In this document: positions 10,185-32,300 of the stretch, piece by piece
Position numbering within the stretch: the stretch's first letter is position 1
Layout of the letters: the number at the start of each line of letters is the position of its first letter
NCBI GenBank assembly: GCA_903874575.1
Contig: CAIQSZ010000370.1
Location: 1-38,552, forward strand
Direction of reading: 5' to 3'
Length of the DNA: 38,552 bases
Source: an uncultured Elusimicrobia bacterium
Lineage (GTDB): Bacteria > Elusimicrobiota > Elusimicrobia > UBA1565 > UBA9628
The notes under the pieces: generated by a model
What the model was told of the DNA's origin: nothing
The model's input: the letters and a program-made list of their open reading frames with translations, nothing else
Databases searched by the model: none
Position numbers and translations under genes: made by a program

Positions 10185-10191
10185 GGCGCCC

Positions 10192-16081: not shown

Positions 16082-16133
16082 CGAATTGCTCCTGGTCATG
16101 TCGATATGCCAGCCTCGGCGGAGGCGACCGGTC

Positions 16134-16147
16134 ATTATATAACATTG
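16134..16147 (-). promoter_or_regulatory. AT-rich element upstream of nrdJ: possible -10 box (TATAAT on minus strand) and/or degenerate NrdR-box-like site
   Basis: The minus strand reads CAATGTTATATAATGA about 50 nt upstream of the nrdJ ATG. It is the only AT-rich island in this intergenic region. The palindromy is imperfect. Confidence 0.25.
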
Positions 16148-18084: not shown

Positions 18085-19026
18085 ATGGCTGAGCTCGCCT
18101 ATCTCCAGGTCGCGCGAGTTTGCAACCAGAAGTGTCTCTTCTGTTCGAATCCGGAGAACGGACGCGTCATCAGCTGGGAGGAGGCGGTGTCCTTCGTGGA
18201 CTCCTCCGCGGCCCAAGGGGCGGCCGGTCTTATCCTCACCGGTGGAGAACCGACGTTGTTCGAGCGCCTTCCCGAGTTGGTCGCCTATGCCCGCAAAAAG
18301 GGACTGCCCGCCAGGATGATCACCAACGGCCAGCGCGCCGCTCGGCCGGGCTTTCTGCGCGCACTCGCCGCCGCGGGTCTGGAGCATATGCACGTCTCCG
18401 TTCATTCCGTCAAACCCCGCGTCCAAGGGCGCCTGACCGGCAATCCGCGGTCTTTGGCCAATATTTTCAAGGCCATAGAATACGCCGGCCGCGAAGGCGT
18501 GAGGGTGGACGTCAACATGGTCATCAATGCGTTGAACGCCGATCACTTGAGCCTCAACGTCCAGGTTTTGGCGGAAAGATTCCCGTTTCTGCGTCATTTC
18601 GTTTGGAACAACCTGGACCCGATGATGAACCGCGCCTCGCTCAATCCGGACCTGGTTCCCAAACTACGCGCTTTCGAGGTGGAACTCCACAAGGCCATGG
18701 TTTGGCTGGACGCGACGGGGAGGACCTTCCGCGTCGAGAGGGTCCCCCTGTGCTTCATGTCCGACTTCCCTCACCGCTCGACCGAGACGCGCAAGATCGT
18801 CAAGGACGAGAACCGCGAGATATACTTCCTCGATGAGAAAGGCCTGCGCCGCCAAGGCCGGAGCGCCTGGACCTACGAAAAGCCGGCGCGGTGCGCCGAC
18901 TGCTCCCTGACGACGATCTGCGCGGGTCTTTACCAGATGGACGTCTATTATTCCTCGGAGGAACTCTGCCCGGTTTTCACGCCCGTCGAAAGCGTGCGGG
19001 CGGCCGTCAAGGCGGACGCTCCATGA
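18085..19026 (+). CDS. radical SAM enzyme, HxsC-like paralog 1
   Basis: CNQKCLFC (CX3CX2C), LTGGEPTL, ITNGQR and the C-terminal CADCSLTTIC (CxxCx5C) motif, which is shared with four other domains in the operon. Confidence 0.75.
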   Translation: MAELAYLQVARVCNQKCLFCSNPENGRVISWEEAVSFVDSSAAQGAAGLILTGGEPTLFERLPELVAYARKKGLPARMITNGQRAARPGFLRALAAAGLEHMHVSVHSVKPRVQGRLTGNPRSLANIFKAIEYAGREGVRVDVNMVINALNADHLSLNVQVLAERFPFLRHFVWNNLDPMMNRASLNPDLVPKLRAFEVELHKAMVWLDATGRTFRVERVPLCFMSDFPHRSTETRKIVKDENREIYFLDEKGLRRQGRSAWTYEKPARCADCSLTTICAGLYQMDVYYSSEELCPVFTPVESVRAAVKADAP

Positions 19027-20198
19027 GCGGAAACTTATTTCTCGGCGTGATTCTTCTTCTCGGAGGGGCGGCGACCATGTCGGATTGGCGGGAGAGCCGC
19101 GTGCCGAACCGGCTCGTCCTGCTGGGCCTGGCCGCCTTCGCCGGCGGACTGGTCTATCACCTGCTCTCCTCGGTCCTCGGGCATCGGGGATGGCGCCTGC
19201 TCGACATAGGTGAATATTATTTGCCCTGGCGTTTTTTCTCGATGCTGGGCGTTCACGCGATTTTGAGTCTCATCGCCGGTTGGACTCTGTGGCGTGTCGA
19301 CGTTTGGCCCGCCGGCGACGCCAAGCTTTATATTGTAATTTCTTGGCTCCTGCCTCTGGCCAACGCGAATTTGACGGGTTTCCCGAGACTCCTCTTCATC
19401 GTACTCCTCATCAATTGCTTCGTGCCGCCGGGTATACTCTTCGCCTGCGAGGGGGTCATCCGGCTCGCGGCCGCGGTCCCGGCGTTCTTTTCCGAAGGGA
19501 TATTCCGCGCGCTCAAGTCCGCCGTGAGCCGCGTCGTCCGGCGGATCAAGGACCTGCGGCCCATGCGACTGGAGGTGGCCGCCTTGCTGGTCAATTTGGC
19601 GTGCTTGTTCTTCGTCATGCGCTTGCTCGAGGCGCAGCTTCACCGCCAGCCGTTCGGGGCTTTAGGCCAGCTCGCGGTGTTTCTATCGATGCTCGTGGTC
19701 TGGCCTCGGCTTGTCGTCCTCCTCTATCGACCCCGATTAGGCGCCGCGGCGCTGTGTCTGTTTTTCGTCGGAGCAGTCTGCGCCGTCGTCGCGGGATTGG
19801 ACTTGGGGGCGGTTGTCTGGCGCGCGGCCAAGATGATGGTCAACTTCGGTTTCGCTCTTTCTTTGGCGCGCGTGGTCTTCAGCCGCGTCATCGAGCGCTC
19901 GAGTCTGCGGGACGTCGCCCCCGACGAATTGCGCCCGGGCGCCTTGCTGGCGGACACGGAGTGGGAAGCGCTTTCCAAGGACGAGGGCTCGCGCGGGATC
20001 GTGGAAGAGAGGAACTGCGACGGCCTGACGCGCGTCGAGGCCGAAGCTCTCCGCAGCAGCCTGTCGGGCCGCGGCGTCCGTTCCTTGTGCGTTTACCGGA
20101 CCGTTCCTTTCGCGGCCTGGATATTCCTGGGCACGGTATTGACCCTCGCGCATCAGGGGACCATCGTGTCTTGGGCTCGGAGTTGGATGGCTCGATGA
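19023..20198 (+). CDS. A24-family (prepilin peptidase-like) polytopic aspartyl protease with an inserted or extended C-terminal region
   Basis: The first Asp context MSDWRESRVPNRL resembles the D-x-R-x-x-IPN of CpaA/TadV. The second is WPAGDAKLY, a GxGDxKL-like motif. The C-terminal TVPFAAWIFLG resembles the PFGPFL end of prepilin peptidases. ATGA overlaps on both sides with radical SAM genes. Confidence 0.6.
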   Translation: MSGNLFLGVILLLGGAATMSDWRESRVPNRLVLLGLAAFAGGLVYHLLSSVLGHRGWRLLDIGEYYLPWRFFSMLGVHAILSLIAGWTLWRVDVWPAGDAKLYIVISWLLPLANANLTGFPRLLFIVLLINCFVPPGILFACEGVIRLAAAVPAFFSEGIFRALKSAVSRVVRRIKDLRPMRLEVAALLVNLACLFFVMRLLEAQLHRQPFGALGQLAVFLSMLVVWPRLVVLLYRPRLGAAALCLFFVGAVCAVVAGLDLGAVVWRAAKMMVNFGFALSLARVVFSRVIERSSLRDVAPDELRPGALLADTEWEALSKDEGSRGIVEERNCDGLTRVEAEALRSSLSGRGVRSLCVYRTVPFAAWIFLGTVLTLAHQGTIVSWARSWMAR

Positions 20199-21106
20199 GC
20201 GAACGCATCGACCTTAAAGTGGGTTTTCGCTGCAACAACTACTGCACGTTCTGCGTCCAGGGCGACAAACGTCAGCGTCTGCCCTCCAAGCCCGAGGGCG
20301 AACTTTTCAAAGCGCTCGAGGAGGGCCGGCTTGAAGGCGCCGACGGCGTCGTTCTCACCGGCGGCGAGCCGACGCTTCATCCTAAGATCGTCGCCATCGC
20401 GGCCAAAGCCAAGAGCCTCGGCTATCGGACGATCCAGGTCCAGACCAACGGGCGGACCTTCTGCTACGGCGACCTTATCAAGCGCCTGGCCGACGCGGGC
20501 GTCAACGAGTTCGGTCCATCCCTGCATGGTTCCACGGCGAGGATACACGATTGGCTCACCGGCGCGCCGGGGGCCTTCCTTCAGACCGTCTCGGGCATGC
20601 GCAACATAAAGAAACACGGAATGCGCCTCATCACCAACTCCGTCATTACGAGAGCCAATTATCGAGATCTCCCTAATTTGGCGAAGCTTCTCGTGTCGCT
20701 CGGCGTCGATCAGTTTCAATTCGCGTTCATGCACATGACCGGGCGCGCCGGAGAGAACAAGAATTGGCTGACGGCGCGCATGGCGATCGCCGAGCCTTGG
20801 GTGAAAAAGGCTCTTGACGTCGGCATCGCCGCCGGCCGGACCGTCATGACCGAGGCTATTCCTTACTGCCGCATGTCCGGGTATGAGGACTATGTCGCCG
20901 AGAGGATCATTCCCCGCACCCGAATCTACGACGCCGACTGCGTCATCGCCGACTACACCAAGACCCGTTTGGACGAAGGGAAGGCTCGCGGACCGCTTTG
21001 TCCGAAATGCGATTGGAACGACCGTTGCGAGGGTCCGTGGCGGGAATATCCGGAACTTTTCGGTTGGGATGAATTCGTTCCGGTTTTGCGAACTGGGGGG
21101 GCTTAG
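20195..21106 (+). CDS. radical SAM enzyme, HxsC-like paralog 2
   Basis: CNNYCTFC, LTGGEPTL, QTNGRTF and C-terminal CPKCDWNDRC (CxxCx5C). Confidence 0.75.
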   Translation: MSERIDLKVGFRCNNYCTFCVQGDKRQRLPSKPEGELFKALEEGRLEGADGVVLTGGEPTLHPKIVAIAAKAKSLGYRTIQVQTNGRTFCYGDLIKRLADAGVNEFGPSLHGSTARIHDWLTGAPGAFLQTVSGMRNIKKHGMRLITNSVITRANYRDLPNLAKLLVSLGVDQFQFAFMHMTGRAGENKNWLTARMAIAEPWVKKALDVGIAAGRTVMTEAIPYCRMSGYEDYVAERIIPRTRIYDADCVIADYTKTRLDEGKARGPLCPKCDWNDRCEGPWREYPELFGWDEFVPVLRTGGA

Positions 21107-21116: not shown

Positions 21117-22289
21117 ATGAGCAGGTTAATAAAGCGGTTCCGTCGCGTTTTTTTCGCCGTCCTTGCCGTCTTGACGGTCGGGGTGTGCCATGCCGCTCCG
21201 CCTTCCCAGCCGCAACAAGCCAAGCTCGGCCAGAAGGATGCAGGTAAAAATACCGGCAAAAGCGAGGAAAGAGACAGGAGCAAAGACAAGGAGCAGCAAG
21301 CGAACCTGAGAAAATTTTCCGCTTGGGACGAACTGTGCCGGGCGGGGACGTTCGATATTCGCGCCGTCAAGGGCCGCGATTCGGGCTCTCCGCCTGAATT
21401 GGGCGTGGCGTATGCGTGCCTTGCGCTGGCGTCTTCCGCGGCGGCTCCGGCCAAGGCGTCGGGCAATCCGGGATTGGACGAGGACGTCCGCAGCCTGACC
21501 GGGAGCGTCTTAGCCATTCACGGCGTCCTGTCGGGAGGTGGTTACACGGAGAAAGCATGCCGGTTGATGGCCGGGACGCCTGAGGGCCAGGCGCCCTCCT
21601 CCGCGAGCAAGCAGCAGTGCCAGCTTTTTTTCTCGGCCCTCCGGGAGAACAAGGGCGGCGGCTTATTGTGCGATCAGGCCAAGGCGAAAGGTCTTGCGGG
21701 CGCAGGCTTTGATTGTTCTCTGGCCGCCAACGTCGTGGATGGGAATTCCAAACGATGCGGCGGTCCCGATGCTTTGCGCTGCCAGGAACTGGCGGGTCTC
21801 GTCGCGGCGTTGCGTTCCAAGGATCCGGGAGGGTGCTCGTCCTCCGTGTTCTGCAAGGTCTTGAAGAGTCGCGACGCCAGGGATTGCGAGCCGTATTTGA
21901 AAAAAGCGGACGTCGGGTTCTGCGCTCGGAACGCCGAGGAATTAGGTAAGCTGAAGCAAGCGGCCCGCGGCGATGCGGATCGTGAGAAAAAAGACAAGGA
22001 CGAGCTCGCCGCAAAAATCCGCGACCAGCAGGCGCAGATTCAAGCCGAAGCCAAGAAAGCCCAGGAGGACCTCGCTGCAAAAACAAGAGATCAGAAACTG
22101 ATGCCCGCGGATGCCGCAGCCAAATTAGCCCGCAGCGAGCAGCAGGCGGAGGCGATGGCCAAAAAAGCGGCCGCCAAAAAAGCGGCGGATGAAAAATTTC
22201 ATAAAGATAAATTTAATAAAATGCAGCCCATGCAGGCCGTCTCGACGGATATCCAGAAGCGAATGAAAGAGATCGAAGGGAAGAAGTGA
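21117..22289 (+). CDS. secreted Cys-rich protein with C-terminal Lys/Ala/Glu-rich coiled-coil tail
   Basis: Signal peptide MSRLIKRFRRVFFAVLAVLTVGVCHA. Repeated short D/K-x(2-4)-C spacing, seen in KDPGGC, RDARDC, ADVGFC and PDALRC. The last ~110 aa are low-complexity K/A/E/Q. Confidence 0.6.
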   Translation: MSRLIKRFRRVFFAVLAVLTVGVCHAAPPSQPQQAKLGQKDAGKNTGKSEERDRSKDKEQQANLRKFSAWDELCRAGTFDIRAVKGRDSGSPPELGVAYACLALASSAAAPAKASGNPGLDEDVRSLTGSVLAIHGVLSGGGYTEKACRLMAGTPEGQAPSSASKQQCQLFFSALRENKGGGLLCDQAKAKGLAGAGFDCSLAANVVDGNSKRCGGPDALRCQELAGLVAALRSKDPGGCSSSVFCKVLKSRDARDCEPYLKKADVGFCARNAEELGKLKQAARGDADREKKDKDELAAKIRDQQAQIQAEAKKAQEDLAAKTRDQKLMPADAAAKLARSEQQAEAMAKKAAAKKAADEKFHKDKFNKMQPMQAVSTDIQKRMKEIEGKK

Positions 22290-22302
22290 ACGCAGTTCCG
22301 AT

Positions 22303-22929
22303 ATGTCGGCGCGCAGGGAGAATATCAGGGTGAAAAAGCAATCGAAGGAATCTAAGATCGTGGTGGACCTTTCGGTGTATCCATTGGAGGCGGTCCAGGC
22401 CGTGGCTTACTCGCTGATGGAGCGCCTTTCCGTTCGCATAGAACGCGGCGGGAATAAAGCGGTTTCCGTCATCCTGAAGCCGAAGTCGGGCGGGAATCCC
22501 GAGGCGCTGGCCGACGAATTCCAAGGCGAGCTTCTGCATGAGACCCTCCGTCTCCAGGTGTCGCTGGCGAATCAAAAGATCCGAGAGTACATCGTGACGA
22601 AGGCCTTGGTTTCGGCCCAGGTTCCCAGTGTGGTTCCGGAAGCGGTCTCTGATTCGGCCTCGTCGGCGGCGGCTGAGTCCTGTCCCGAGTGCCAGGCCCA
22701 ACAGGCCCAAGCCGCGCCGCCTCCGGTCGACGCGGAATTGGAGAAAGAGATCGAGAAACTTCTCGTTGAAATCGAGAAGGGCGACGGCGGAGACGATCCT
22801 CTGGGAGTGGCGGTGCCGTGGGAAGAGAAGTACGGCAAGGCGTCCGAAGCCGCGCCGCCGCCTTCGGATAAAGAGCCCTCGAAAATGAAATCAAAAACGG
22901 CAAAGCCGGCGAAGCCGGGGGCTGCATGA
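22303..22929 (+). CDS. hxsD: HxsD-like protein (His-Xaa-Ser system accessory protein) with ~100-aa low-complexity C-terminal extension
   Basis: FQGELLHETLRLQVSLANQKIREYIVTKAL resembles the LLNDYxLRE signature I recall for HxsD. The gene sits directly upstream of hxsB with an ATGA overlap. The tail contains CPEC and Pro/Ala/Lys-rich sequence. Confidence 0.55.
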   Translation: MSARRENIRVKKQSKESKIVVDLSVYPLEAVQAVAYSLMERLSVRIERGGNKAVSVILKPKSGGNPEALADEFQGELLHETLRLQVSLANQKIREYIVTKALVSAQVPSVVPEAVSDSASSAAAESCPECQAQQAQAAPPPVDAELEKEIEKLLVEIEKGDGGDDPLGVAVPWEEKYGKASEAAPPPSDKEPSKMKSKTAKPAKPGAA

Positions 22930-24395
22930 GCGGGGAAGCCCCCATCGTGGAGTTCCCACGCCTCAATCCGGAAAAGACGGGTTTTTTTCGGTTTCGACGG
23001 CTCAAGGATGATTATCTCATCACCAATGATTTCGGCCGGCACTGCCTCTTAACGGCGGCGGAGTTCAAGAGCTTCGTCGAGGGCTCGATGGACGCATCCT
23101 CGCCGTTGTACGCGCGGCTGGCGCAGGACGGATTCATCCGCGACAGCATGGATTTCGAGGCGTTGACGTCCGTTTGGCGGACTCGCAACCGCTTCCTATG
23201 GCAGGCCCCCAATCTTCATATCATCGTCGTCACTTTGCGCTGCAACCACCGTTGCCTCTACTGTCAGGCCAACTCGGTCTCGATGAAGGATGAGTCGTCG
23301 GATATGAGTTTGGAGACGGCGCGCAAGGTCGTGGACCGGATATTCGAGAGCGTAAGCCCCGCCATCACCATCGAGTTCCAGGGCGGGGAACCCTTGGCCA
23401 ACTGGCCGGTCGTTCAGTTCATCGTCGAGTACGCCCGCACGAAGAACCGCGAGGCCGGCAAGAGCCTGTGGATCAACTTAGTCACCAACCTGAGTCTCAT
23501 GGACGACGAGAAGTTGAAATTCCTCCTCAAGAACGAGGTCAACTTTTGCACTTCGCTCGATGGGCCCGCGGACCTGCACGACAAGAACCGCGTTTTCTCC
23601 GGCGGCAACAGCCATGCCGGCGCCGTGCGGTGGTTCAAGAAGATTCAGAAGAAGACGGTGGGCAAAGCCTTCCGCATCGATGCCTTGCTGACGGTGACGC
23701 GGTTCTCGCTGTCGCGCCACAAGGACATCATCGATGAGTATATCGGTCTCGGCATGCGCGGGATATACCTGCGGCCTTTAAGCCGGCTCGGCCTGGCGCG
23801 CGGGACCTGGGACCGGATCGGCTACGAGCCGGACGAGTTCCTCGAATTCTATCGGAAGTCGCTCGATTACATCCTTGAAATCAACAAACGCAAGAATTTT
23901 TTCGAGCAGACCTCCCGCTTGTTCCTGGCTAAGATTTTGGGAGACAACGATCCCAACTTTTTGGACCTCCGTTCGCCCTGCGGCGCGGGGATCGGCCAGA
24001 TCGCCTACAACTTCAACGGCGATCTTTATACCTGCGACGAAGGACGGATGTTCTCGCGCATGGGAGACGAATCCTTCCGCATCGGGGGCGTCAACGAGGG
24101 ATCTTACCAGGAAAGCGTGAGCCACCCGACCGTGCGCGCCATCACGGTGGCTTCCACCCTGGATAACCAACCGCAGTGCTCGAAATGCGCTTATAAGCCC
24201 TACTGCGGCGTGTGCCCGGTGCAGTGCTACGGTGAACAAGGCGATATCATGGGCCGCATGCCGTCCAACACGCGTTGCCGCTTGAACATGGGCGTCCAGG
24301 ACGCTTTATTCGAGCGGCTTCGGGATCCTAAGACGGAAAAGACTTTCAGGAAATGGATTCGTGAAAGAAAAGAACCGGCCGTCTCTCCGCGCTAG
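22926..24395 (+). CDS. hxsB: radical SAM/SPASM maturase, HxsB-like
   Basis: CNHRCLYC lies ~110 aa from the N-terminus. FQGGEPL is present. C-terminal SPASM-type Cys cluster CGAG...YTCDEG...CSKCAYKPYCGVCP. Directly upstream of the His-Xaa-Ser repeat gene. Confidence 0.75.
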   Translation: MSGEAPIVEFPRLNPEKTGFFRFRRLKDDYLITNDFGRHCLLTAAEFKSFVEGSMDASSPLYARLAQDGFIRDSMDFEALTSVWRTRNRFLWQAPNLHIIVVTLRCNHRCLYCQANSVSMKDESSDMSLETARKVVDRIFESVSPAITIEFQGGEPLANWPVVQFIVEYARTKNREAGKSLWINLVTNLSLMDDEKLKFLLKNEVNFCTSLDGPADLHDKNRVFSGGNSHAGAVRWFKKIQKKTVGKAFRIDALLTVTRFSLSRHKDIIDEYIGLGMRGIYLRPLSRLGLARGTWDRIGYEPDEFLEFYRKSLDYILEINKRKNFFEQTSRLFLAKILGDNDPNFLDLRSPCGAGIGQIAYNFNGDLYTCDEGRMFSRMGDESFRIGGVNEGSYQESVSHPTVRAITVASTLDNQPQCSKCAYKPYCGVCPVQCYGEQGDIMGRMPSNTRCRLNMGVQDALFERLRDPKTEKTFRKWIRERKEPAVSPR

Positions 24396-24404
24396 AGGTA
24401 TTCC

Positions 24405-24872
24405 ATGGGCAAAGAAATCATTCCTAAAATCAAAAAAGACCTCACTCGGTTCTTGACGAGTGAAGAAGGTAAGATGCTCAAGAAGGACATCCTTAAGGCC
24501 GCAGCCATCCTGGGCATCGTCGGAGCGACCATGATGAAGGCGGAGGACGTCCTCGCTCAGACCCACACCAACGCCCTCCATAATTCGGGCGGACAGGCGT
24601 CGAGCCATGTGAGCCATAGTTCGCATGCCAGCCATGCTTCTCACGGCTCTCACGGCAGCCACGGTTCGCACGGCAGCCACGGTTCGCACGGCTCCCATGG
24701 CTCGCACGGAAGCCACGGCAGCCACGGGTCCCACGGCTCGCACGGATCCCATTCATCCCACGGCAGCCACGGCAGTCATGGGAGCCATGGCAGCCACGGC
24801 AGTCATGGCAGCCACGGCAGCCACGGCAGCCACGGCAGTCATGGGAGCCATGGCAGCCACGGGAGTTGGTAG
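24405..24872 (+). CDS. hxsA: His-Xaa-Ser repeat precursor protein (29 H-x-S triplets, 24 of them HGS)
   Basis: GAGG RBS 7 nt upstream of the ATG. A 67-aa N-terminal region contains the Sec-like hydrophobic segment KKDILKAAAILGIVGATMMKAEDVLAQ. Then HVS-HSS-HAS-HAS-(HGS)12-HSS-(HGS)12-W-stop. Confidence 0.85.
   Translation: MGKEIIPKIKKDLTRFLTSEEGKMLKKDILKAAAILGIVGATMMKAEDVLAQTHTNALHNSGGQASSHVSHSSHASHASHGSHGSHGSHGSHGSHGSHGSHGSHGSHGSHGSHGSHSSHGSHGSHGSHGSHGSHGSHGSHGSHGSHGSHGSHGSW
24606..24866 (+). repeat. coding tandem repeat, 9-nt period x 29 (CAY-GGN-TCN/AGY)
   Basis: Read directly from the sequence. The first 12 HGS units mix TCT/TCG/TCC/AGC Ser codons, while the last 12 use only AGC/AGT. The last 12 also contain an exact 36-nt duplication, units 1-4 equal to units 8-11 of that block. 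Confidence 0.95.
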
Positions 24873-26652
24873 CGGAGCAACGTCCGGAAGCAACTGGTCG
24901 AAGGCGCTGCTCAAGGTCGGCTACGCCTGCAATAATCGCTGTGTCTTCTGCCATTCGGAGTCGTTCCGGGTCATCCATCCCGAACTGACGACGCGGGACC
25001 TCCAGGCTCGGATACTGGAGGTCAAGGCGCGCGGCGTCGAGATGGTGGTTTTTTCCGGCGGCGAGCCGACGCTGCGTTCCGACATCTCTGAGTTGGCCCG
25101 TTTCGCGCATCAACAGGGGCTGAAAACCGGCTTTATCACGAACGGGCGTCGGTTCGCGTACCCCTCGTTCGTTCGGGATATGCGCGCCTGCGGGCTCCGC
25201 TTCGTTTATACGTCCTTCCATTCGCCCCTTCGTCGCGCTCATGAGTCGTCGAGCGGCGCCGACAGCCTCACGCAAGTCCTGGCCGCGTTGCGCCACTTGT
25301 CGCGTTCGGAAGTCGAACTGACCGTCAACACGGTCGTCACGCGCCATAACATCGGGAGCCTGTCGGAGGTCGTCGACCTTTTAGCCGCGTTCGCCCCCGC
25401 GAGGATTAAGTTCTCGGTCGTCGAGCCGAAGGGCGCGGCTCTCGAGAATCCGACGCTCTGTCCCCCGCTGAAGGAGAGCGCGGCGGCGATTTCGGACGCG
25501 ATCCGATATGGGGAATCAAGGCATCCGAACGTTCGCTTCGCTTGCGAAGGGCTGACGCCGTGCCTTATCGACGATTTCGACCGACTCAACGACGACCTGG
25601 TTTCGAACGGATTCGTGCTTTTTCAGGAGACGTTCGAGTCTCGTCCCGTCCGCCCCGATTACGGCAATCGCGCGAAAGCGGCGGCGTGTTGGGATTGCGC
25701 GCGGCACGATTCGTGCCCCGGCGTGTTTCAGGGCTATCTTTCCTCCGATCACGATCTCCCGATTCAGCCGCGGCCGAGCCGCATTTCCAATTCCTTCGTT
25801 TTCCTGCGCGGGGATCTCGCCGCCCCTCCGCGCGTCCCGGCGGAGTGCTCCTTGGAACGGGGCGACGTCCGCGGCATTTTCGTCGCCGAAGGGAATCGAC
25901 TGCGCTCGTATCGGACGCCCACGTCCGATTTTTCCGACGCCGAGATCGCGGAGACATTGCGTCTCGGCCAAGTGTATAAGACCCGCGGCGCGAAGCATAA
26001 GGGACTCGAGTATGGGCGCGACCTGGTCAAATACCGCGTCTCGCGGCTGTGCCGCTCGTGCGACCGTCGCGTCGGGTGCTCCCGCATCTACGAGAGGAGT
26101 CCGGGCAACGCCTTCGCTCCGTTGGAATCGGCGTTGGAGGACGTCGTGCGCGGCCTGCGCGGCGATATCCTGGAGGTCGGCTGCGGCAATATCCGGTTCC
26201 GAAGCGTACTCGAGGCCCTCGTTCGGGCGGGGCGCATGAGGTACGTCGGCATCGATCCGCATCTACCGCGGATGGCGGTTCCGCGCGGCATGTCGGTGCG
26301 CCGCGTCGATATCGAGGATTTCGACGCGGCCGCCGCCGCGTTCGATCATATCCTGATTTCGCGCAGCTACAACCATATCCGGCTTCCCTCCGTGGCTTTC
26401 CCGAAAATCCGACGATTATTGAGGGCGAAAGGCCGCTTGACCGTCGTCGACGGAGTTTCCTGCGGGATACTCCTGCCGCGTCGGCCTCCCGAGGCGTCCG
26501 CGTCGGAGTTCCAACACTATCGGAACCATTCGTCGGGGCAGGCTAAGGAGATGATCGCGTCGTTCGGCTTTTCCGCGGTCCGCGAGATCCCGGTCGATCC
26601 CGGCGGCGGCAGCGAGTGGCTGCTTTCCTTCCGCAAGAAGAGCCTCGAATGA
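24841..26652 (+). CDS. hxsC: radical SAM enzyme (HxsC-like, paralog 3) fused to a C-terminal class I SAM-dependent methyltransferase-like domain
   Basis: CNNRCVFC, FSGGEPTL, ITNGRRF and CWDCARHDSC (CxxCx5C). The C-terminal ~200 aa carry DILEVGCGNIRF, a motif I GxGxG-like sequence. No start codon exists after the hxsA stop. The candidate ATGs at 24841 and 24850 lie inside the hxsA repeat in the +1 frame, so the start is uncertain. Confidence 0.7.
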   Translation: MGAMAATGVGSGATSGSNWSKALLKVGYACNNRCVFCHSESFRVIHPELTTRDLQARILEVKARGVEMVVFSGGEPTLRSDISELARFAHQQGLKTGFITNGRRFAYPSFVRDMRACGLRFVYTSFHSPLRRAHESSSGADSLTQVLAALRHLSRSEVELTVNTVVTRHNIGSLSEVVDLLAAFAPARIKFSVVEPKGAALENPTLCPPLKESAAAISDAIRYGESRHPNVRFACEGLTPCLIDDFDRLNDDLVSNGFVLFQETFESRPVRPDYGNRAKAAACWDCARHDSCPGVFQGYLSSDHDLPIQPRPSRISNSFVFLRGDLAAPPRVPAECSLERGDVRGIFVAEGNRLRSYRTPTSDFSDAEIAETLRLGQVYKTRGAKHKGLEYGRDLVKYRVSRLCRSCDRRVGCSRIYERSPGNAFAPLESALEDVVRGLRGDILEVGCGNIRFRSVLEALVRAGRMRYVGIDPHLPRMAVPRGMSVRRVDIEDFDAAAAAFDHILISRSYNHIRLPSVAFPKIRRLLRAKGRLTVVDGVSCGILLPRRPPEASASEFQHYRNHSSGQAKEMIASFGFSAVREIPVDPGGGSEWLLSFRKKSLE

Positions 26653-28916
26653 CGAAAAGACGGCGCGTGCTGCTGGTGAATCCTCCGGCGCTCCTGGACC
26701 GGGATTTCATCGATTATCCTCAATTCGTCGGGTTGGGGGTCGCGTCGAACGCCGCGGCTCTGCGCGCGCGGGGGCTTGCCGTGACGGTGGCGGACGCCCA
26801 GATGTCGGCGCAGGCCGAGGTCGCGGCAAGGGACGACGGCCGAGTGCGGCTTGGCTGCGATCTGGAACGGCTTCTGAAGACCGTCCCCGGCGATTTCGAC
26901 GACGTCGTCGTCGGAGTGTCCCCCTACGCGAAGCCGCACGCGCGCACCGAATTCACCGCGCGGCAGTTCGCCGCGGCGCGCGCGCGCTTCCCTTCCGCGA
27001 GGCTGGTGGCGGCGGATTTCTATTTCGGCGGCATCCACTATATCGAGTACGACGGCGAACGGTTTTTGCGCGATTATCCCCAAGTGGACGCCGTGGTGAA
27101 ATATGAGGGCGAATCGGCGCTTGCCGCTCTTCTGAAGTCCTCCGGCCCGCTGCCGCGCGTGACGCGCGCGGTCGCGGAGGACATCCCGGTGGACTCCCTG
27201 CCTTATCCCGCTTGGGACCCGAAGTTCGTCGAAGGGCACGGAGACTTGTCGGCGAAGTTTTATGCCGCGAGCGGCCGTCCGGCGCCCTATCCGCCCGGCG
27301 TCGTGACCTTGCCCGCGGTGACTTCCCGGAGCTGCGCTTACCGCTGTTCCTTCTGCACCTCGAATCCGGGCCAGAGCCGAGCGTCGTTCCGGCCGCATGG
27401 GGCGGCTTACCTGCGGCGATATTTTTCCGAACTAAAAAATAAATTCTCCGTCCGACGCCTGGTCCTTCTTGACGGATGCGCCAATTACGATCCGGCGCGT
27501 TTCGACGAGATATTATCGATTATCGGAGAACTCGGCTTGCGCTGCGATTTCCCGAACGGGCTTCGAGCGGACAAATTGACTTTTGCGGCGCTCCGGGCGC
27601 TGAGCGCCGTCTCGGACGGCGTTTCCATCAGCGCGGAATCAGGCGATCCCGAGGTCCTTTCGCATATTTTTAAGAAAGGGATGGATCTTTCGGCCGTCGA
27701 GAGAGTCGCGTCCTGGTGCCGCGAGCTCCGGCTGCCTATAGGCATTCATTATATCGTCGGCGCTCCCGGGGAGACGCCGGAGAGCGTCAATCGGACCCTG
27801 CGCCACGCGTTGAGGATGACGGACGATTTCGGGGCCCGGCCGCTGCTGCAGAATTTCGTGCCTATTCCCGGCACGGCGCTTTATGGGGAGTGCGAGCGGC
27901 GGGGGCTTCTGAAGAGGTTCGACGCGGAGAATCTCCATCGATATTTTCAGGGAGAGCCGGCCCTGTCCACGCCCTCGCTGAGCCGGGCGAAGCTGTCGCG
28001 CATGGTCCGTCTGTTCCGGAGCAGGCTGGAGGCTTCGTCGCTGCAGAAAGTCATCGTCAACCTCACCTATCACTGCAACAACAACTGCCGGTTCTGCGCC
28101 GTCGGGGACCGGGGCAAGCGGCATGGGGACTTCGAGCGCTATGGGCGGCTTCTGGCCGACTATAGAAAGCGCGGAGTCACGGCTCTGGATTTGGACGGAG
28201 GCGAGCCGACGCTGTATCCGGAATTTTTTCCGCTCGTCCGCCTGGCGCGGCGATGCGGCTATGAGAAGATCACGGTCACGACCAACGGCCGGCGGCTCGC
28301 CGATCGCGCCTTCGCGGCTCGTTTTCTTCTCAGCGGCATCTCCGACCTGCTGATCTCCCTGCACGGGCATACGCCGGAGATCCACGAATATCAAACGAGA
28401 CGAAAGGGGAGCTTCGCCGAGGCCGTCCAGGGCCTCCGCCATGCGTTGAGGCTCAAGCCCGGCCGCATGACGGTGGGGGTCAATACCATGCTCCTCGCGG
28501 AGAACGCCCGGCATCTTCCGAGCTTCCTCGATTTCATGGATGAATTGGGGGTGGAGAAGGTGAACGTCCAACTGCTGACCCCCTTCGGCAACGCGGCGGC
28601 CGCGCCCGGTCGGGGCGATTTCGACGTCTACGGACATGCGGCTCGCGCGCTGCGGCGTCGGAAGAAGACGCCGGCCGTTCAACTCGTCAACGTCGTTCCC
28701 TGCCTGCTCGCGGGGCACGCGCGAGGCGTGCCGGCCGAACTCGGCAAGCATGGGCGGGAGATGGTGTTCGTGGACGCGGCTCCTCGCAATCTCGCCGCAT
28801 ACCTTGACGCTCGGAGGCATAAGACTGATCAATGTCGAGGCTGTGAATTTGATATCGGATGCGGCGGCTTCCATGTCTTCAACGCTGAAGAAGATCGAAC
28901 TGATCCTCTGGTTTAA
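26649..28916 (+). CDS. double radical SAM fusion: N-terminal class-B-like (B12-binding-like domain + rSAM) and C-terminal HxsC-like rSAM (paralog 4)
   Basis: The N-terminus RRVLLVNPPALLDRDFIDYPQFVGLGVASNAAALRARGLAVTVAD is B12-binding-domain-like. The first cluster motif is CAYRCSFC. The second half has CNNNCRFC, LDGGEPTL, TTNGRRL and CRGCEFDIGC (CxxCx5C). ATGA overlap with the upstream stop. Confidence 0.7.
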   Translation: MTKRRRVLLVNPPALLDRDFIDYPQFVGLGVASNAAALRARGLAVTVADAQMSAQAEVAARDDGRVRLGCDLERLLKTVPGDFDDVVVGVSPYAKPHARTEFTARQFAAARARFPSARLVAADFYFGGIHYIEYDGERFLRDYPQVDAVVKYEGESALAALLKSSGPLPRVTRAVAEDIPVDSLPYPAWDPKFVEGHGDLSAKFYAASGRPAPYPPGVVTLPAVTSRSCAYRCSFCTSNPGQSRASFRPHGAAYLRRYFSELKNKFSVRRLVLLDGCANYDPARFDEILSIIGELGLRCDFPNGLRADKLTFAALRALSAVSDGVSISAESGDPEVLSHIFKKGMDLSAVERVASWCRELRLPIGIHYIVGAPGETPESVNRTLRHALRMTDDFGARPLLQNFVPIPGTALYGECERRGLLKRFDAENLHRYFQGEPALSTPSLSRAKLSRMVRLFRSRLEASSLQKVIVNLTYHCNNNCRFCAVGDRGKRHGDFERYGRLLADYRKRGVTALDLDGGEPTLYPEFFPLVRLARRCGYEKITVTTNGRRLADRAFAARFLLSGISDLLISLHGHTPEIHEYQTRRKGSFAEAVQGLRHALRLKPGRMTVGVNTMLLAENARHLPSFLDFMDELGVEKVNVQLLTPFGNAAAAPGRGDFDVYGHAARALRRRKKTPAVQLVNVVPCLLAGHARGVPAELGKHGREMVFVDAAPRNLAAYLDARRHKTDQCRGCEFDIGCGGFHVFNAEEDRTDPLV

Positions 28917-29760
28917 ATGCAACTGCCGCTGCGCTTTCTGCGTCGTCGACGCGGAGACGGCGCGTCAGTCCATGACGACGGCCGAAGCCGTGCGTCACAT
29001 GGGGCGAGCCCGGAAGGAGGGCGCGAGCGCGGTGGATTTCGGCGGCGGGGAGCCGACGCTGCGCGACGACTTGGCCGCGCTCGTCCGGGCCGCCGCCGCG
29101 TTCGGGTATTCGGACATCGGCGTCAAGTCGAACGGATTGATGTTCTGCTATCCGGAATACGTCGAGACGTTGCGCCGCGCGGGGGCGGACCGTTTTTCCG
29201 TCTCCGTTTGGGGCGATTGCCCGTCCGTCCATGACGCGCTCTGCCGGACGCCGGGGGCCTTCGAGAAGATGGAGATGGGGATAAAAAACGTCGTCGATTC
29301 GGGGGGCGATCCTGAGGCCGAGGTTCTGCTGACCGTCGGGTCCGTCCCGCGGTTGGGGCGCATCGTGGGGGCGTTCGCGGACATCGGGGTGAAGCGGTTC
29401 CGGTTCTGGCTCTATTCGCTCTTCGGGGCGGATTCCCGTTTTCCGGAGCTTCTGCCGACGTTGACGGACGCGGGAGCGGCGATCTCGCGGACGTCCTCCT
29501 CCTTCGCATCCCGAGGACTGATTTTTTCGACGAGCCACGTCCCGCCCTGTTTTCTGCGCGCGCGGGGCGTCTACGCTCCCATTGCCGACGAAGGACTGCG
29601 CATCATCACGCCGGGCGGAGCGTTCGCCGCCGAGCGTTCGCCGTTCGAGGCCGGCGTCAAGACGCGGCGGTGCGCGGGATGCTCCCACGCCGACCGTTGC
29701 GGAGGGGTTCGTCACGAATATCTCCAGCGTTTCTCCGATGCCGAAATCACGCCGATCTGA
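28873..29760 (+). CDS. radical SAM enzyme, HxsC-like paralog 5
   Basis: CNCRCAFC, FGGGEPTL, KSNGLMF and CAGCSHADRC (CxxCx5C). The ATG at 28873 overlaps the previous gene by 44 nt. Confidence 0.7.
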   Translation: MSSTLKKIELILWFKCNCRCAFCVVDAETARQSMTTAEAVRHMGRARKEGASAVDFGGGEPTLRDDLAALVRAAAAFGYSDIGVKSNGLMFCYPEYVETLRRAGADRFSVSVWGDCPSVHDALCRTPGAFEKMEMGIKNVVDSGGDPEAEVLLTVGSVPRLGRIVGAFADIGVKRFRFWLYSLFGADSRFPELLPTLTDAGAAISRTSSSFASRGLIFSTSHVPPCFLRARGVYAPIADEGLRIITPGGAFAAERSPFEAGVKTRRCAGCSHADRCGGVRHEYLQRFSDAEITPI

Positions 29761-31156
29761 GGGGTTGCCGCCGGCGCAGGCGCGCGACTTTCAACGCTAT
29801 CTCGAAATGGCCCGCGGGCTTCCTTGGGAGGCCGAGCAGCTGCCGGCCTGCGAACTGCACGGCGCGCCGCTCTCCGGAGAGGCTGTCGGCGCGCTTTGGG
29901 CTCAGGCCGTCCGGGCGGGCTCTTTCGGGGGGGGCCTCGGCCTCTATTGCCACATTCCGTTCTGCGCGAGCCGTTGCGGCTATTGCCATTGCTTTTCCGA
30001 CGCCTTGAAGCGCCCGGATGAGTTAAGCGACCACCTCCGCCTGCTCTTGACGGAGATCTCTCTCTGGGGGCCGACGTTCGCCCGGAGCCGCTTCACCAAC
30101 GCCTACATCGGCGGCGGGACGCCCACGCTCCTGCCTCCGAAAGGCCTGGCGCTTCTATTGGGCGCGATACGAAGCGCCTTCCGTTTCACGGATGACGCTC
30201 AGATTACCGTCGAGTCCACGCCGAGGACCGCCGACGCGAACCGTTTGGCCGTCCTGCGCGCCCATGACGTCCGTCGCCTGAGTCTCGGCGTTCAATCCTT
30301 GGATCGCGCGGTGCTGGCCCGCGCGGATCGACAATGGCAGACCTTCGAGATGGTGGAACGCGCCTGCCTCAACGCCCGCCGGGCGGGGTTCCCCATCGTG
30401 AACGCCGACCTCATCGCGGGCCTTCACGGTCAATCCGTCGCCTCGCTCATCGCGGACGCGCAAGCGGTGGCTCGGCTGGGATTCGATACGATACACGTCT
30501 ACTACTTCGAACCGAACAAAGGCGCCTACGACGGCCGCGGTCGCCTCGGCGCCGCCTGGCGACGGCGCCGTCAGGCCATGCTGGCGGCGGTCGGTCCCGC
30601 CCTGGCTCCTTACGGCTACCGGGCCATCTTCGGCGAGACGATCTACGCGTTGCGCGAGGGGGCGGAGAACCGCTACGATTTCGAACGGTACTTCCGAGCG
30701 GGTTCGATCCTCGGTCTGGGATGGCAGGCTGAATCCCATGCTTTCCCGGGAACCAACTACAGACATCTTTCGAGGCAATCGTGGCAGGAAAGCCTTCGGG
30801 CCGGTCGCATGCCGCCCGTGCGGTCGTACCGGGGCGGACCGGACTGGGAAATGCGGGAGTTTCTCGTCTTCCGTCTGCGCCAAGGGGTCGATTATGGCGT
30901 TTTCCGGAGACTTTTCGGCTGTCGGCCTCAGGACGCGTTTCCGGCCGCCTTCCGCGCCCTCCGGCGGGCCGGCCGCCTTCGCGAGCGGACCGGCTTCGTT
31001 CAGGCGGTGTTCGGCTCACAGTTGGAGTATCTGGCCGTCACTTTGCATTTTTTCCCCGAAGAATCTCTTTTGAGGGCATTGTCGATGCGCCCATCGGTCC
31101 AGACGGATGGAGGGCGAGAGTCGCCCGTGCGTCGCGGCTCGCGCCCGGAGGCGTAG
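29738..31156 (+). CDS. HemN-like (class C) radical SAM enzyme
   Basis: YCHIPFCASRCGYCHC (CX3CX2C followed by an extra Cys), YIGGGTPTLL, SLGVQS and a HemN_C-like tail. The start is uncertain: ATG at 29738 or 29810. Confidence 0.75.
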   Translation: MPKSRRSEGLPPAQARDFQRYLEMARGLPWEAEQLPACELHGAPLSGEAVGALWAQAVRAGSFGGGLGLYCHIPFCASRCGYCHCFSDALKRPDELSDHLRLLLTEISLWGPTFARSRFTNAYIGGGTPTLLPPKGLALLLGAIRSAFRFTDDAQITVESTPRTADANRLAVLRAHDVRRLSLGVQSLDRAVLARADRQWQTFEMVERACLNARRAGFPIVNADLIAGLHGQSVASLIADAQAVARLGFDTIHVYYFEPNKGAYDGRGRLGAAWRRRRQAMLAAVGPALAPYGYRAIFGETIYALREGAENRYDFERYFRAGSILGLGWQAESHAFPGTNYRHLSRQSWQESLRAGRMPPVRSYRGGPDWEMREFLVFRLRQGVDYGVFRRLFGCRPQDAFPAAFRALRRAGRLRERTGFVQAVFGSQLEYLAVTLHFFPEESLLRALSMRPSVQTDGGRESPVRRGSRPEA

Positions 31157-31157
31157 C

Positions 31158-32300
31158 GTGACCTCCGTCAAAGGAAGCCCGGAAATATATCTCGACAATG
31201 CCGCCACCACGCCGCTGCGCCCGGCCGCGTTGCGCGCGATGATGGATTGCTCCCGGCGTTTCTACGGCAATCCCTCCTCGTGGCATCGCAAGGGCGTCGA
31301 GGCGTCTCGGGCCGTGGAGAAAAGCCGCCGAATCCTCGCGCTGGCTCTGGGTTGCGAGCCGGACGAGATCGTCTTCACTTCCGGGGGTACGGAAGCCAAT
31401 AATCTCGCCGTCAAAGGGGTGGCGCGGGCTTTAGGGAGGCGCCGGGCCCACGCCGTCGTCTCGGCCGTCGAGCATCCCAGCGTGGCGGCCGCCGTCCAGT
31501 CGCTGAAGGCGCGGGGCTGGTCGATCACCGTCGTGAAGACGGACGAAGATGGGATGGTCGCGCCCCGCCGCGTCGCCGAGGCGCTGACCTCCTCCACCGC
31601 TTTGGTCAGCGTCATGCACGCCAACCATGAGATCGGGACGATCGAGCCCATCGCCGAGATCGGCCGCCTCTGTCGACGGGCCGGAGTCCTCTTTCACAGC
31701 GACGCCTGCCAAAGCTTCATGAAGGAGCCGCTGGATTTGAGACGGGTTGCGGTGGATTTGGTCAGCGTCAACGCCCACAAACTCCATGGACCAAAGGGCG
31801 TCGGCGCCTTGGTCGCGCGCCGAGGATCGTCTCTGGCGCCGCTCCTGGACGGGGGCGGACAGGAAGGCGGACGTCGTTCCGGGACCCACAATACCCCCGC
31901 CATCGCGGGGTTCGCCGCCGCCGTGGAGGACTCCGACCCCGGGGCGCCCGAGAAGATGCGGCGTCTGCGTGACAGGCTCTTTGCGGCGCTCGTTCGGACG
32001 ATACCGGGGCTGAGCCTTAATGGGCCGCGTCATGGCCGCCTCTGCAGCCATCTGAATCTGCTGCTGCCGGGGCTCCAGGCCAAGCCCTTCCTCCAAAAAC
32101 TCAGCGCCGCGGGGATATACGCTTCCGCCGGAGCGGCCTGTTCCTCAGCCAAGACCACTCCTAGTCCCGTGCTGCTCGCCATTGGAAGGACTCCCGAGCA
32201 GGCGTCGTGCAGCGTGCGCTTGAGTTTGAGCCGCTCGACCACTCCGTCCCAGATCGACGCGGCGGCTCGGACGATGGCGTCGCTCGCCCGCGGCCTATGA
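31158..32300 (+). CDS. cysteine desulfurase (NifS/IscS-like, class V aminotransferase)
   Basis: IYLDNAATTP, TSGGTEANN, PLP-lysine context SVNAHKLHGPKGVGAL, RSGTHN and active-site loop SAGAACSS. A GTG start at 31158 lies 1 nt after the upstream stop. The ATG at 31107 would overlap by 50 nt. Confidence 0.8.
   Translation: MTSVKGSPEIYLDNAATTPLRPAALRAMMDCSRRFYGNPSSWHRKGVEASRAVEKSRRILALALGCEPDEIVFTSGGTEANNLAVKGVARALGRRRAHAVVSAVEHPSVAAAVQSLKARGWSITVVKTDEDGMVAPRRVAEALTSSTALVSVMHANHEIGTIEPIAEIGRLCRRAGVLFHSDACQSFMKEPLDLRRVAVDLVSVNAHKLHGPKGVGALVARRGSSLAPLLDGGGQEGGRRSGTHNTPAIAGFAAAVEDSDPGAPEKMRRLRDRLFAALVRTIPGLSLNGPRHGRLCSHLNLLLPGLQAKPFLQKLSAAGIYASAGAACSSAKTTPSPVLLAIGRTPEQASCSVRLSLSRSTTPSQIDAAARTMASLARGL

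Follow-up and report, generated by a model that had tools for sequence, protein, structure and literature searches.

The 38,552-nucleotide (nt) contig CAIQSZ010000370.1 of an uncultured Elusimicrobia bacterium (assembly GCA_903874575.1), hereafter the window, carries at positions 24405–24872 of its forward strand a short open reading frame (ORF) whose product consists largely of His-x-Ser (HxS) triplets. We identify this ORF with high confidence as an HxsA4 precursor that is matured by the neighbouring radical S-adenosylmethionine (SAM) genes. The best explanation overall, and one that we consider probable, is that HxsA4 is modified by the radical SAM enzymes of its cluster and is then exported and processed; the export and cleavage steps, taken by themselves, are given an even chance of being right. 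Interest in the locus lies in its extremely regular substrate, in a suite of nine radical SAM domains accompanied by a prepilin peptidase (A24)-like protein, and in a possible link to nitrogenase-like gene clusters.

The family assignment comes from the NCBIfam model for HxsA4, NF038313, which the protein matches with 131.7 bits against a cutoff of 55 (E = 1.3e-38), residues 6–102 aligning with positions 2–91 of the 93 in the profile. The HxsA3 model, NF038309, overlaps NF038313. A preliminary description of the ORF as an HxsA-type precursor is thus borne out, and can be made more exact. The Hxs family goes back to a bioinformatic definition by Haft and Basu (cited in PMC9062424). The model for canonical HxsA, TIGR03979, gives no match at E ≤ 0.01, and no domain follows the HxsA4 repeats. 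Because most of the features that define the HXS antiphage system fail, as set out below, we conclude that the window protein belongs to the catalogued HxsA4 subfamily and not to the canonical system. This curated subfamily is already known and experimentally untouched; what is new here is a further member in the Elusimicrobiota.

The HxsA4 precursor and its repeat array

Coordinates below are on the forward strand of the window unless the minus strand is given. The precursor ORF (24405–24872) encodes 155 amino acids (aa) followed by a TAG stop; its start lies 9 nt past the stop codon of the HxsB gene, behind an AGAGG Shine-Dalgarno-like site. Translation reproduces exactly the layout first described, in which a 67-residue N-terminal region is followed by 29 uninterrupted HxS triplets, a Trp residue and the stop, and the N-terminal segments MGKEIIPKIKKDLTRFLTSEEGK and MLKKDILK-AAAILGIVGATMM-KAEDVLA/Q have the sequence then given. 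The array occupies 24606–24866, reads HVS-HSS-HAS-HAS-(HGS)12-HSS-(HGS)12, and is the proposed substrate region of the radical SAM enzymes. The Trp codon is at 24867–24869; a terminal aromatic residue is a feature of the family. The length of the run makes a chance origin of the 29 triplets impossible.

Codon usage differs between the two HGS blocks, as had been noted. In the first, the Ser codons are, in order, TCT/AGC/TCG/AGC/TCG/TCC/TCG/AGC/AGC/TCC/TCG/TCC, whereas all 12 in the second are AGC or AGT. No single synonymous change interconverts TCN and AGY codons for Ser, and a switch between them alters the other reading frames. Because the Ser codons switch between the two sets while the protein stays HxS, we conclude that the HxS frame is the selected one; the mix in the first block preserves this frame alone, in agreement with the protein-level selection suggested earlier. 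Overlapping ORFs in other frames or on the opposite strand are open because the repeat contains no stop codons. Three that cross the repeat, at 24306–24752 and 24493–25347 on the minus strand and from a start at 24625, were rejected as not genuine, since TCN/AGY switching preserves only the HxS frame.

The second block also contains the exact internal duplication reported for it, although this measures 42 nt and not 36. Positions 24758–24799 recur at 24821–24862, an offset of 63 nt or 7 units, and throughout the duplicated part of the array (24758–24862) Ser is encoded by AGC or AGT. The AGY-only Ser codons and the exact repeat both fit the idea that this block expanded recently. The GC content over hxsD-hxsB-hxsA4 (22001–26000) is 58–61%, compared with 65–69% in the left flank of the window.

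The periodicity of the array invites a structural reading in which (Gly-Ser-His)n, formally a Gly-X-Y sequence, would form the triple helix of a collagen-like protein. The Pfam Collagen model (PF01391) is matched with 42.7 bits (cutoff 27.2), and there are weak matches to models of the Scl and Lcl adhesins. The array has no Pro and no charge pairs, however, and many units of the relatives have Ser, Ala or Val in the middle, so that Gly at every third position is not conserved. With HSS, HAS and HVS units that lack Gly, and with no Pro, the collagen match is best rejected as an artefact of periodicity, and we find a collagen-like role scarcely credible.

Relatives and variation of the array

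Pattern scans retrieved 16 genome loci and, among metagenome loci, 80 of 148, from which 96 unique precursors were obtained; individual loci are referred to below by numbers with the prefix L. Such proteins are rare, with 4 relatives returned by a word-indexed search across 5.8 billion proteins and 45 matches at E ≤ 1e-3 from an exhaustive phmmer search with residues 1–67 against 1.84 billion cluster representatives. Almost all relatives are from metagenome-assembled genomes (MAGs) of Elusimicrobiota from groundwater, sediment and peat; the family is also found in the Candidate Phyla Radiation (CPR; Paceibacterota, Minisyncoccia), in one Woesearchaeota archaeon and in one proteobacterial MAG. 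Relatives from Elusimicrobia, CPR bacteria and the proteobacterial MAG likewise exceed the NF038313 cutoff.

The number of HxS units in relatives ranges from 2 to 49. Near-identical leaders are followed by 14 units in L103, 16 in L021, 26 in L019 and 33 in L003; L018 has 29, arranged differently, and its array, too, has a long run using AGC only. The prediction that repeat number would vary is thus upheld, for example by L103 with 14 units against 29 here. Taken with the 42-nt repeat, the unit counts support continuing expansion and contraction of the array. The C-terminus is more constant. An alignment had been proposed as a check on whether both the repeat count and the terminal Trp are conserved; the count is not, whereas a Trp, Tyr or Phe lies within the last 3 residues in 51 of 60 complete short relatives. 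The last residue in these 60 is Trp in 22, Cys in 12 (GWC, SWC or GGWC), Tyr in 10 and Phe in 4, with GQW, GSW, GSY, FSF and GGWC as typical endings. Long fusions with extra C-terminal domains account for 18 of 78 complete relatives, and a few relatives have cores that are not HxS.

Several loci show further variants. The CPR-type loci L013 (11208–12887) and L014 (8997–10520, minus strand) encode the same leader followed by 38–50 HxS units and a fused, unannotated C-terminal domain of ∼330 aa. Two precursor genes with the same leader occur together in L001 (2475–3318), L012 (9933–10899, minus strand) and L088 (181–723 and 6265–6882), and the tandem precursors of L001 and L012 differ at the C-terminus, with GGWC in one and ACPCCAGIGAEI in the other. 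In the Woesearchaeota MAG, locus L015 (9992–10201) encodes HxsD, HxsB, an A24-like protein and a precursor that has the leader, only 2 HxS units and the ending SSY; this archaeal locus points to cross-domain transfer among groundwater organisms. Dismissal of L012, L014, L016 and L017 as spurious low-complexity matches was considered and rejected, as the real precursors lie on the opposite strand.

HxsB, HxsD and the linkage to radical SAM genes

The precursor belongs to a co-oriented, tightly packed cluster of ∼15 kb, roughly 16.2–32.3 kb of the window, that contains nine CxxxCxxC radical SAM domains in eight genes and has 4-nt ATGA overlaps between genes at 19023/19026, 20195/20198, 22926/22929 and 26649/26652. 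Immediately upstream of hxsA4 is HxsB (22926–24395, 489 aa), a radical SAM/SPASM maturase that matches TIGR03978 with 530.9 bits against a cutoff of 370. Its CxxxCxxC motif begins at residue 106, behind an N-terminal extension of ∼100 residues. The closest solved structure is that of CteB (5WGG), aligned over residues 102–441. The likeness to the SCIFF/CteB pair extends over the radical SAM and SPASM domains, an N-terminal extension of similar length (∼100 aa) and an adjacent precursor gene with a conserved leader; the SCIFF substrate, in contrast, is a short Cys-rich peptide, whereas HxsA4 is a repeat protein of >100 aa with a predicted export signal.

The gene before HxsB (22303–22929, 208 aa) encodes an HxsD-like protein, with 44.5 bits (E = 1.5e-11) to TIGR03976, just under the cutoff of 50; the end of the gene and the start of HxsB share 4 nt. 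A precomputed PF27806 HxsD assignment is attached to the orthologs in L098, L103 and L105. The HxsD motif LLNDYxLRE is kept only in part here, as ELLHETLRL.

Linkage was counted in the 67 loci whose sequence extends 1.7 kb or more beyond the precursor on its upstream side; a protein qualified as an HxsB ortholog if it shared 40% identity or more over a minimum of 350 aa. Such an ortholog is present in 62 of the 67, and in 54 it lies on the same strand and ends <400 nt before the precursor. Of the 39 loci that span 8 kb or more, 26 also have HxsD. The linkage to radical SAM genes that had been claimed for the window therefore holds both here and across related loci. It had been allowed that the repeat might be just a low-complexity tail of unrelated proteins, with no link to radical SAM genes; the presence of HxsB in 62 of 67 loci shows that it is not.

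Comparison with the HXS antiphage system

HXS of E. coli and Klebsiella is an antiphage system with the gene order HxsD-HxsB-HxsC-HxsA (Li et al., Nat Commun 2026, PMC13128918). HxsD, HxsB and HxsC mature HxsA, and a +8 Da modification has been mapped to its last HxS unit (PMC13128918). In the published model HxsA undergoes radical SAM-dependent maturation in the cytoplasm, N-terminal processing and export; in E. coli the processing is not simple removal of a signal peptide but depends on HxsB, HxsC and HxsD, and periplasmic HxsA blocks the entry of phage DNA, probably electrostatically (PMC13128918).

The window shares with this system an HxsB-type radical SAM/SPASM protein, an HxsD-type protein and a tandem HxS substrate with an N-terminal export signal, which here is predicted. 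The differences are extensive. Canonical HxsA, as seen on an Aeromonas plasmid (L107, 6595–7173; TIGR03979, 230 bits), combines a short, classic signal peptide with 5–6 Arg-rich units (HRS/HSS) and a C-terminal peptidoglycan-binding domain. HxsA4, in contrast, has a conserved 22-aa leader, 29 neutral units (x being Gly, Ser, Ala or Val) without Arg or Lys, no globular domain and a terminal Trp. The gene order is D-B-A here, as in 54 of 67 relatives, in place of D-B-C-A, with no canonical HxsC but with seven additional radical SAM domains, the A24-like peptidase and a NifS. Among the cluster genes the best score to canonical HxsC (TIGR03977, cutoff 267.9) is 96.1 bits, and no cluster radical SAM protein reaches the cutoff of 500 for the HxsC4 partner (NF038332), the best scoring 156.7 bits and the others 64–107.

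The homologous HxsB and HxsD, and an HxS-repeat substrate for which export is predicted, could mean that HxsA4 has the same function, blocking phage DNA entry from the periplasm; the published system needs every HxS unit, which is consistent with a multivalent array (PMC13128918). We nevertheless consider this unlikely. HxsA4 lacks the peptidoglycan-binding domain and has neutral HGS, HSS and HAS units instead of HRS, neither TIGR03979 nor TIGR03977 is matched at cutoff, and the seven extra radical SAM domains would be left unexplained. The cluster is flanked by housekeeping genes and not by a defence island, and PADLOC models run on the window gave generic radical SAM/viperin similarity but nothing specific. 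The host belongs to the Elusimicrobiota, whereas 99.7% of HXS systems are in Pseudomonadota (PMC13128918).

Leader, start codon and hydrophobic core

The leader, residues 1–22 (24405–24470), is hydrophilic and net basic and ends with the family motif FLTSEEG (24450–24470), the last residue of which is Gly22. In the pattern-scan loci its consensus is P-x-[IFL]-K-K-x-[LIV]-x-x-F-L-T-S-E-E-G-[KNR] after a basic N-terminus. FLTSEEG is invariant in alignments A1 and A2, an invariance that is partly circular because FLTSEEG was the search pattern. In the unbiased phmmer search the motif relaxes to F/Y-L-x-x-E-E/D-G, and Gly stands at its end in 40 of 41 sequences. We propose that FLTSEEG is the recognition element for HxsB/HxsD.

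An internal ATG at 24474 is present, as had been pointed out, but its suggested role as the true start does not hold. Residues 1–23 are the best conserved of the protein, the leader being conserved in relatives from residue ∼7 onward, whereas Met24 is Ile or Val in most of them. We conclude that translation starts at 24405.

Residues 23–51 (24471–24557) comprise the segment KMLKKDILK, a 13-residue hydrophobic core, AAAILGIVGATMM (24498–24536), and a polar c-region, KAEDVLA, with Ala51/Gln52 as a candidate signal peptidase I site. The predicted start of the mature chain, residues 52–67 (QTHTNALHNSGGQASS, 24558–24605), includes the sequence H-T-N-A-L-H-N-S-G that is conserved in the Elusimicrobia clade. 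No 19-residue window of HxsA4 reaches 1.6 on the Kyte-Doolittle scale, and in 72 relatives the uncharged run has a median of 13 residues (range 9–18). So short a core would not make a stable transmembrane helix; its length is typical of the h-region of a signal peptide. Its N-terminal flank is net positive and its C-terminal flank acidic, and this charge asymmetry predicts an N-in/C-out orientation.

The leader also bears comparison with class III signal peptides, the substrates of PilD, TadV/CpaA and FlaK. These have a hydrophilic leader of 6–26 residues ending in Gly, followed by ∼21 mainly hydrophobic residues with Glu at +5 (PMC4471445). The 22-residue length and conserved Gly of HxsA4 agree with the first of these features, a hydrophobic segment lies downstream, and the cluster encodes an A24-like protein. 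The second feature is lacking: Gly22 is followed by the nine mostly charged residues K-M-L-K-K-D-I-L-K, with Lys at +5 instead of Glu, and then by a core of only 13 residues, and the cluster has no pilus assembly genes. No Flp_Fap or pilin model appeared for HxsA4 in a Pfam search at E ≤ 10, and membership of the Flp/pilin family was rejected on this ground. Flp prepilin leaders (for example ...TRFLKDESG/ATAIEYG) do resemble ...TRFLTSEEG/K, a resemblance that we take as a lead and not as a test. A near-invariant Gly at the end of a 22-residue leader, together with the cluster's own A24-like protein, suggests an additional or alternative cleavage, for which the bond after Gly22 is a possible site.

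The A24-like membrane peptidase

The prepilin peptidase (A24)-like protein (19023–20198) is a polytopic membrane protein of 391 aa whose gene overlaps both flanking radical SAM genes by 4 nt. The Pfam model Peptidase_A24 (PF01478) is matched by four of six homologs, with a best E of 6e-9; there is also one match to Arc_PepC, the C-terminal domain of archaeal A24 enzymes. Asp21, in S-D-W-x5-P-N, and Asp99, in A-G-D-A-K (G98-D99-x-K101), are invariant in 22 sequences; we take these to correspond to the two catalytic Asp motifs of PilD/FlaK-type enzymes. Altogether 24 homologs were found, all from Elusimicrobia, of which two are annotated as prepilin peptidase and one (from JGI) as Flp pilus assembly protein protease CpaA.

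The gene keeps company with the precursor. Every context with an A24-like protein of at least 36% identity and enough flanking sequence contains hxsD-hxsB-hxsA4 (L098, L103, L105 and L106), and for the only such contig without hxsA4 (L100/L101) the same assembly has hxsA4 on another contig (L009). In L008, L035, L090 and L106 the A24-like gene directly adjoins the precursor. The module in which it stands between two radical SAM genes (18085–21106) is conserved in L027, L029, L098, L103 and L105, upstream or downstream of the D-B-A core according to the genome.

These associations bear on a different view of the mature protein, in which HxsA4 would be inserted N-in/C-out, the A24-type peptidase would remove the 22-residue leader only, on the cytoplasmic face and in the manner of class III signal peptides, KMLKKDILKAAAILGIVGATMM would stay as an anchor or assembly helix, and the array would form a membrane-anchored brush that signal peptidase I does not release. 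The hydrophilic leader with its near-invariant terminal Gly, the first of the class III features (PMC4471445), speaks for such a brush, as do the dedicated A24-like gene, adjoining the precursor in several relatives, and the CpaA annotation of the JGI homolog. The charged KMLKKDILK after Gly22, the 13-residue core and the absence of Glu5 do not conform to the second class III feature, however, no Flp_Fap or pilin model in Pfam is matched even at E = 10, and in many related loci there is no A24-like gene within 10 kb. We regard the anchored brush as doubtful.

Two observations concern the wider range of the peptidase. The most distant homolog, of 29% identity, is in L102 (GCA_016205085.1), in a different multi-radical-SAM cluster with a Trp-halogenase-like gene and glycosyltransferases and with no FLxxEEG or HxS precursor. 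In the window itself, a pilin-like ORF with a prepilin N-methylation motif lies at 7846–8739, within a region (5639–11904) that encodes large secreted proteins without family match (5639–8248, 8739–10184 and 10192–11904); the A24-like peptidase may have the product of this pilin-like ORF as its client instead.

Proposed maturation and export

Modification followed by export and processing, the reading that we prefer, would proceed as follows. Translation starts at the ATG at 24405, as the conservation of residues 1–23 shows. In the cytoplasm the HxsB/HxsD pair would bind the leader motif FLTSEEG, a step proposed from near-universal synteny and from related SPASM maturases, whose N-terminal domains bind leaders. 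HxsB, the five HxsC-like radical SAM domains and the three methyltransferase-type radical SAM enzymes (B12-type, HemN-like and radical SAM-methyltransferase) would then modify His, Ser or both in each unit; that the 29 triplets may be modified unit by unit is suggested by analogy with E. coli HxsA, in which the +8 Da was found on an HxS unit. With its basic leader and 13-residue core, HxsA4 would be inserted by way of Sec in the N-in/C-out orientation. Signal peptidase I, cutting after Ala51, or the A24-type peptidase, cutting after Gly22, or the two together would then remove the leader. The expected product is a modified, His-rich, uncharged-to-cationic chain of ∼104 aa that starts near QTHTNALHNSG, ends with Trp and is located outside the cytoplasmic membrane. 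Since radical SAM maturases are cytoplasmic, modification before export had been raised as one option in the preliminary description; this order, by analogy, agrees with the published model for canonical HxsA (PMC13128918). A role in the cell envelope, whether exclusion of phage or DNA as for canonical HXS or the binding of metal, is the most economical guess for the product.

Several findings weigh against this scheme. The 31-residue n-region, although net positive, is atypical for a Sec signal peptide. The V-L-A/Q sequence fits the −3/−1 rule, but small-x-Ala past the core occurs in 68 of 72 relatives compared with 85% of shuffled controls, an enrichment test that did not discriminate between the two. 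The A24-like protein scores 24.9 bits with Peptidase_A24, just under the cutoff of 26.5; a profile search of PDB sequences gave no match to it, and a Foldseek search of the PDB with its AlphaFold2 model (mean predicted local distance difference test score, pLDDT, 80.2) gave nothing below E = 0.7. Its gene was found in 11 of 97 precursor-side loci, many of them short. With no HxsC or HxsC4 at cutoff, the E. coli HxsC-HxsD core is not to be assumed here, and with repeats that lack Arg and Lys the electrostatic DNA-binding model of HxsA is not directly transferable. The literature search found HxsA4 only as a curated hidden Markov model, with no experiment or paper describing the family. Finally, the exact HxsA4 protein, with either the 24405 or the 24474 start, was not found among 15 billion predicted proteins. 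From this last result hxsA4 seems to be uncalled by public pipelines, and the downstream gene seems to be extended there into the repeat in another frame.

In the antiphage system the chemistry of HxsB/HxsC-type enzymes on the HxS unit is known as a mass shift of +8 Da; with the 29 near-identical units of HxsA4, any per-unit modification would produce a large, easily measured mass ladder. The leader is of interest for its unusual two-part construction, a Gly-ended recognition motif followed by a short hydrophobic core, and may be handled by an A24-type peptidase.

Nitrogenase-like genes in related loci

In the related loci L098/L099, on the same contig as L029, and L105 hxsD-hxsB-hxsA4 runs through overlapping same-strand genes into radical SAM and A24-like genes. 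Further along (L098 12104–16391; L105 12138–16416) are a NifH-NifD/K-like (Oxidored_nitro) fusion, a second Oxidored_nitro gene, a TP_methylase gene and more radical SAM genes. Nitrogenase-like genes also lie within ∼3 kb of the D-B-A core in L019 (6071–6790) and L002 (2–1982). The window has no nitrogenase-like or TP_methylase gene, and the link holds for relatives only. It is probable that the nitrogenase-like genes of the relatives are what Meheust et al. (2020) described as group VI paralogs in Elusimicrobia. The group VI paralog and its radical SAM suite have been proposed to reduce a tetrapyrrole (Meheust et al. 2020, 10.1101/765248), and a July 2026 review lists group VI as being of unknown function (Chem Rev 2026, PMC13474568). 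A term search of these two papers found no mention of a peptide precursor.

The group VI clusters and the window have in common their phylum and many radical SAM genes, including B12-binding and HemN-like ones. The TP_methylase family includes diphthine synthase, which acts on a modified histidine, and B12-type and HemN-like radical SAM enzymes also methylate peptides. A tetrapyrrole substrate is therefore not required by these neighbours, and besides the tetrapyrrole hypothesis the cluster suggests another, which can be tested, for the radical SAM/nitrogenase-like suites of Elusimicrobia. We suggest, tentatively and with more doubt than conviction, that the large suites of groundwater Elusimicrobia, for which a novel tetrapyrrole cofactor has been proposed as the product, are built around HxsA4. 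The radical SAM enzymes and, in genomes that have them, the nitrogenase-like reductase and the TP_methylase would act on the exported repeat protein or add a group to it, and the product would be a hypermodified poly-histidine surface polymer of a new class with its own prepilin-peptidase-like processing.

The same neighbourhood can be turned against export altogether, with HxsA4 as a cytoplasmic scaffold that binds metal or tetrapyrrole, or as a sacrificial precursor that yields a small redox cofactor by excision, in the manner of pyrroloquinoline quinone (PQQ) or mycofactocin, the hydrophobic segment serving only for recognition or as a tether. The operon of the relatives, with NifH/NifDK-family genes and TP_methylase, has been read as cofactor biosynthesis (10.1101/765248; PMC13474568), and HemN-like and B12-type radical SAM enzymes are present in the window. 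The charge distribution around the core, however, predicts that the C-terminus is outside, unit numbers from 2 to 49 would be strange if the product were a small cofactor of fixed structure, in some relatives the array is joined to C-terminal domains of at least 300 aa, and the window is without a nitrogenase-like gene. The C-terminal aromatic residue of HxsA4 is reminiscent of the C-terminal Tyr of the mycofactocin precursor. On balance we think a cytoplasmic scaffold or cofactor precursor improbable.

Other genes of the cluster and its surroundings

At the upstream edge of the cluster is a divergent radical SAM enzyme (16172–17128, minus strand; Pfam Radical_SAM, CTRDCFFC), with an ortholog of 67% identity at the same position in L006. 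It is followed by a membrane-anchored protein (17276–18043) with one hydrophobic segment and no family match, which recurs upstream of hxsD in relatives and has homologs in 12 loci. The two radical SAM genes that flank the A24-like gene encode an HxsC-like protein of 313 aa (18085–19026; Pfam Radical_SAM, sub-cutoff TIGR03977 score of 75.9 bits, CNQKCLFC) and an HxsC4-like protein of ∼303 aa (20195–21106; CNNYCTFC), the latter giving the 156.7 bits with NF038332 and the 96.1 bits with TIGR03977 quoted above. Between this gene and hxsD lies a predicted secreted Cys-rich protein (21117–22289) with an N-terminal signal-like hydrophobic segment and no family match; it is conserved upstream of hxsD in several loci of Elusimicrobia, and homologs occur in L005, L019, L020, L022, L024, L027 and L035.

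Downstream of hxsA4 comes a fusion of a radical SAM domain with a class I SAM methyltransferase (24841–26652; Pfam Radical_SAM and Methyltransf_11), in which CNNRCVFC stands at residue 27 when counted from 24850. Its start is the ATG at 24841 or at 24850, in the +1 frame within the last HGS units, an overlap of 23–32 nt with hxsA4; the ATG arises from the CAT-GGN codon pair for His-Gly. Public calls place the start at 24841 (NCBI/ENA) or at 24778 (ENA), reaching into the repeat. The next gene encodes a two-domain protein of 755 aa (26649–28916), consisting of a B12-type radical SAM domain (CAYRCSFC) and an HxsC-like one (CNNNCRFC), with HpnJ-like/B12-radical SAM and HxsC4/HxsC matches; orthologs of 58–59% identity are present in L018, L022 and L026. 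A further HxsC-like radical SAM protein (28873–29760) has orthologs of 61–62% identity in L018 and L026. The HemN-like radical SAM protein (29738–31156), with a start at 29738 or 29807, has sub-cutoff matches to STM4012, HemN, HemZ and ChuW and a weak one to HemN_C. The last gene encodes a NifS/IscS-type cysteine desulfurase (31107–32300; TIGR03402 378.8 bits, cutoff 530.75; Pfam Aminotran_5, E = 3e-68), which probably supplies sulfur for the many Fe-S clusters.

This arrangement is shared in part by relatives. L018 and L026 keep the order hxsD, hxsB, hxsA4, radical SAM-methyltransferase, B12-type radical SAM/radical SAM and radical SAM gene, L022 does so up to the end of its contig, and L103 has the same order as judged by gene size and Pfam domains. 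More distant loci have the D-B-A core together with 2–10 further radical SAM domains of varying type.

The flanks of the cluster are housekeeping genes, namely those for a class II ribonucleotide reductase, methionyl-tRNA synthetase, the delta′ subunit of DNA polymerase III, thymidylate kinase and phosphatidylserine decarboxylase. Both in the window (13580–16135, minus strand) and in L029 (3349–5862, minus strand) the neighbour at the border of the cluster is the class II-type ribonucleotide reductase, which has a TSCPD domain and is 88% identical in L029/L098; this shared border indicates that at least two lineages carry the cluster at one and the same site in the chromosome. A NodU/CmcH-type carbamoyltransferase lies near the cluster in the window (33713–35404), in L004 (2775–6215) and in L006 (2788–6258), and in the last two loci it forms part of a protein of ∼1150 aa encoded between the upstream membrane protein and hxsD. 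The carbamoyltransferase could O-carbamoylate Ser, or it could be part of an adjacent polysaccharide locus, a WbuX-like gene being located at 32338–33558.

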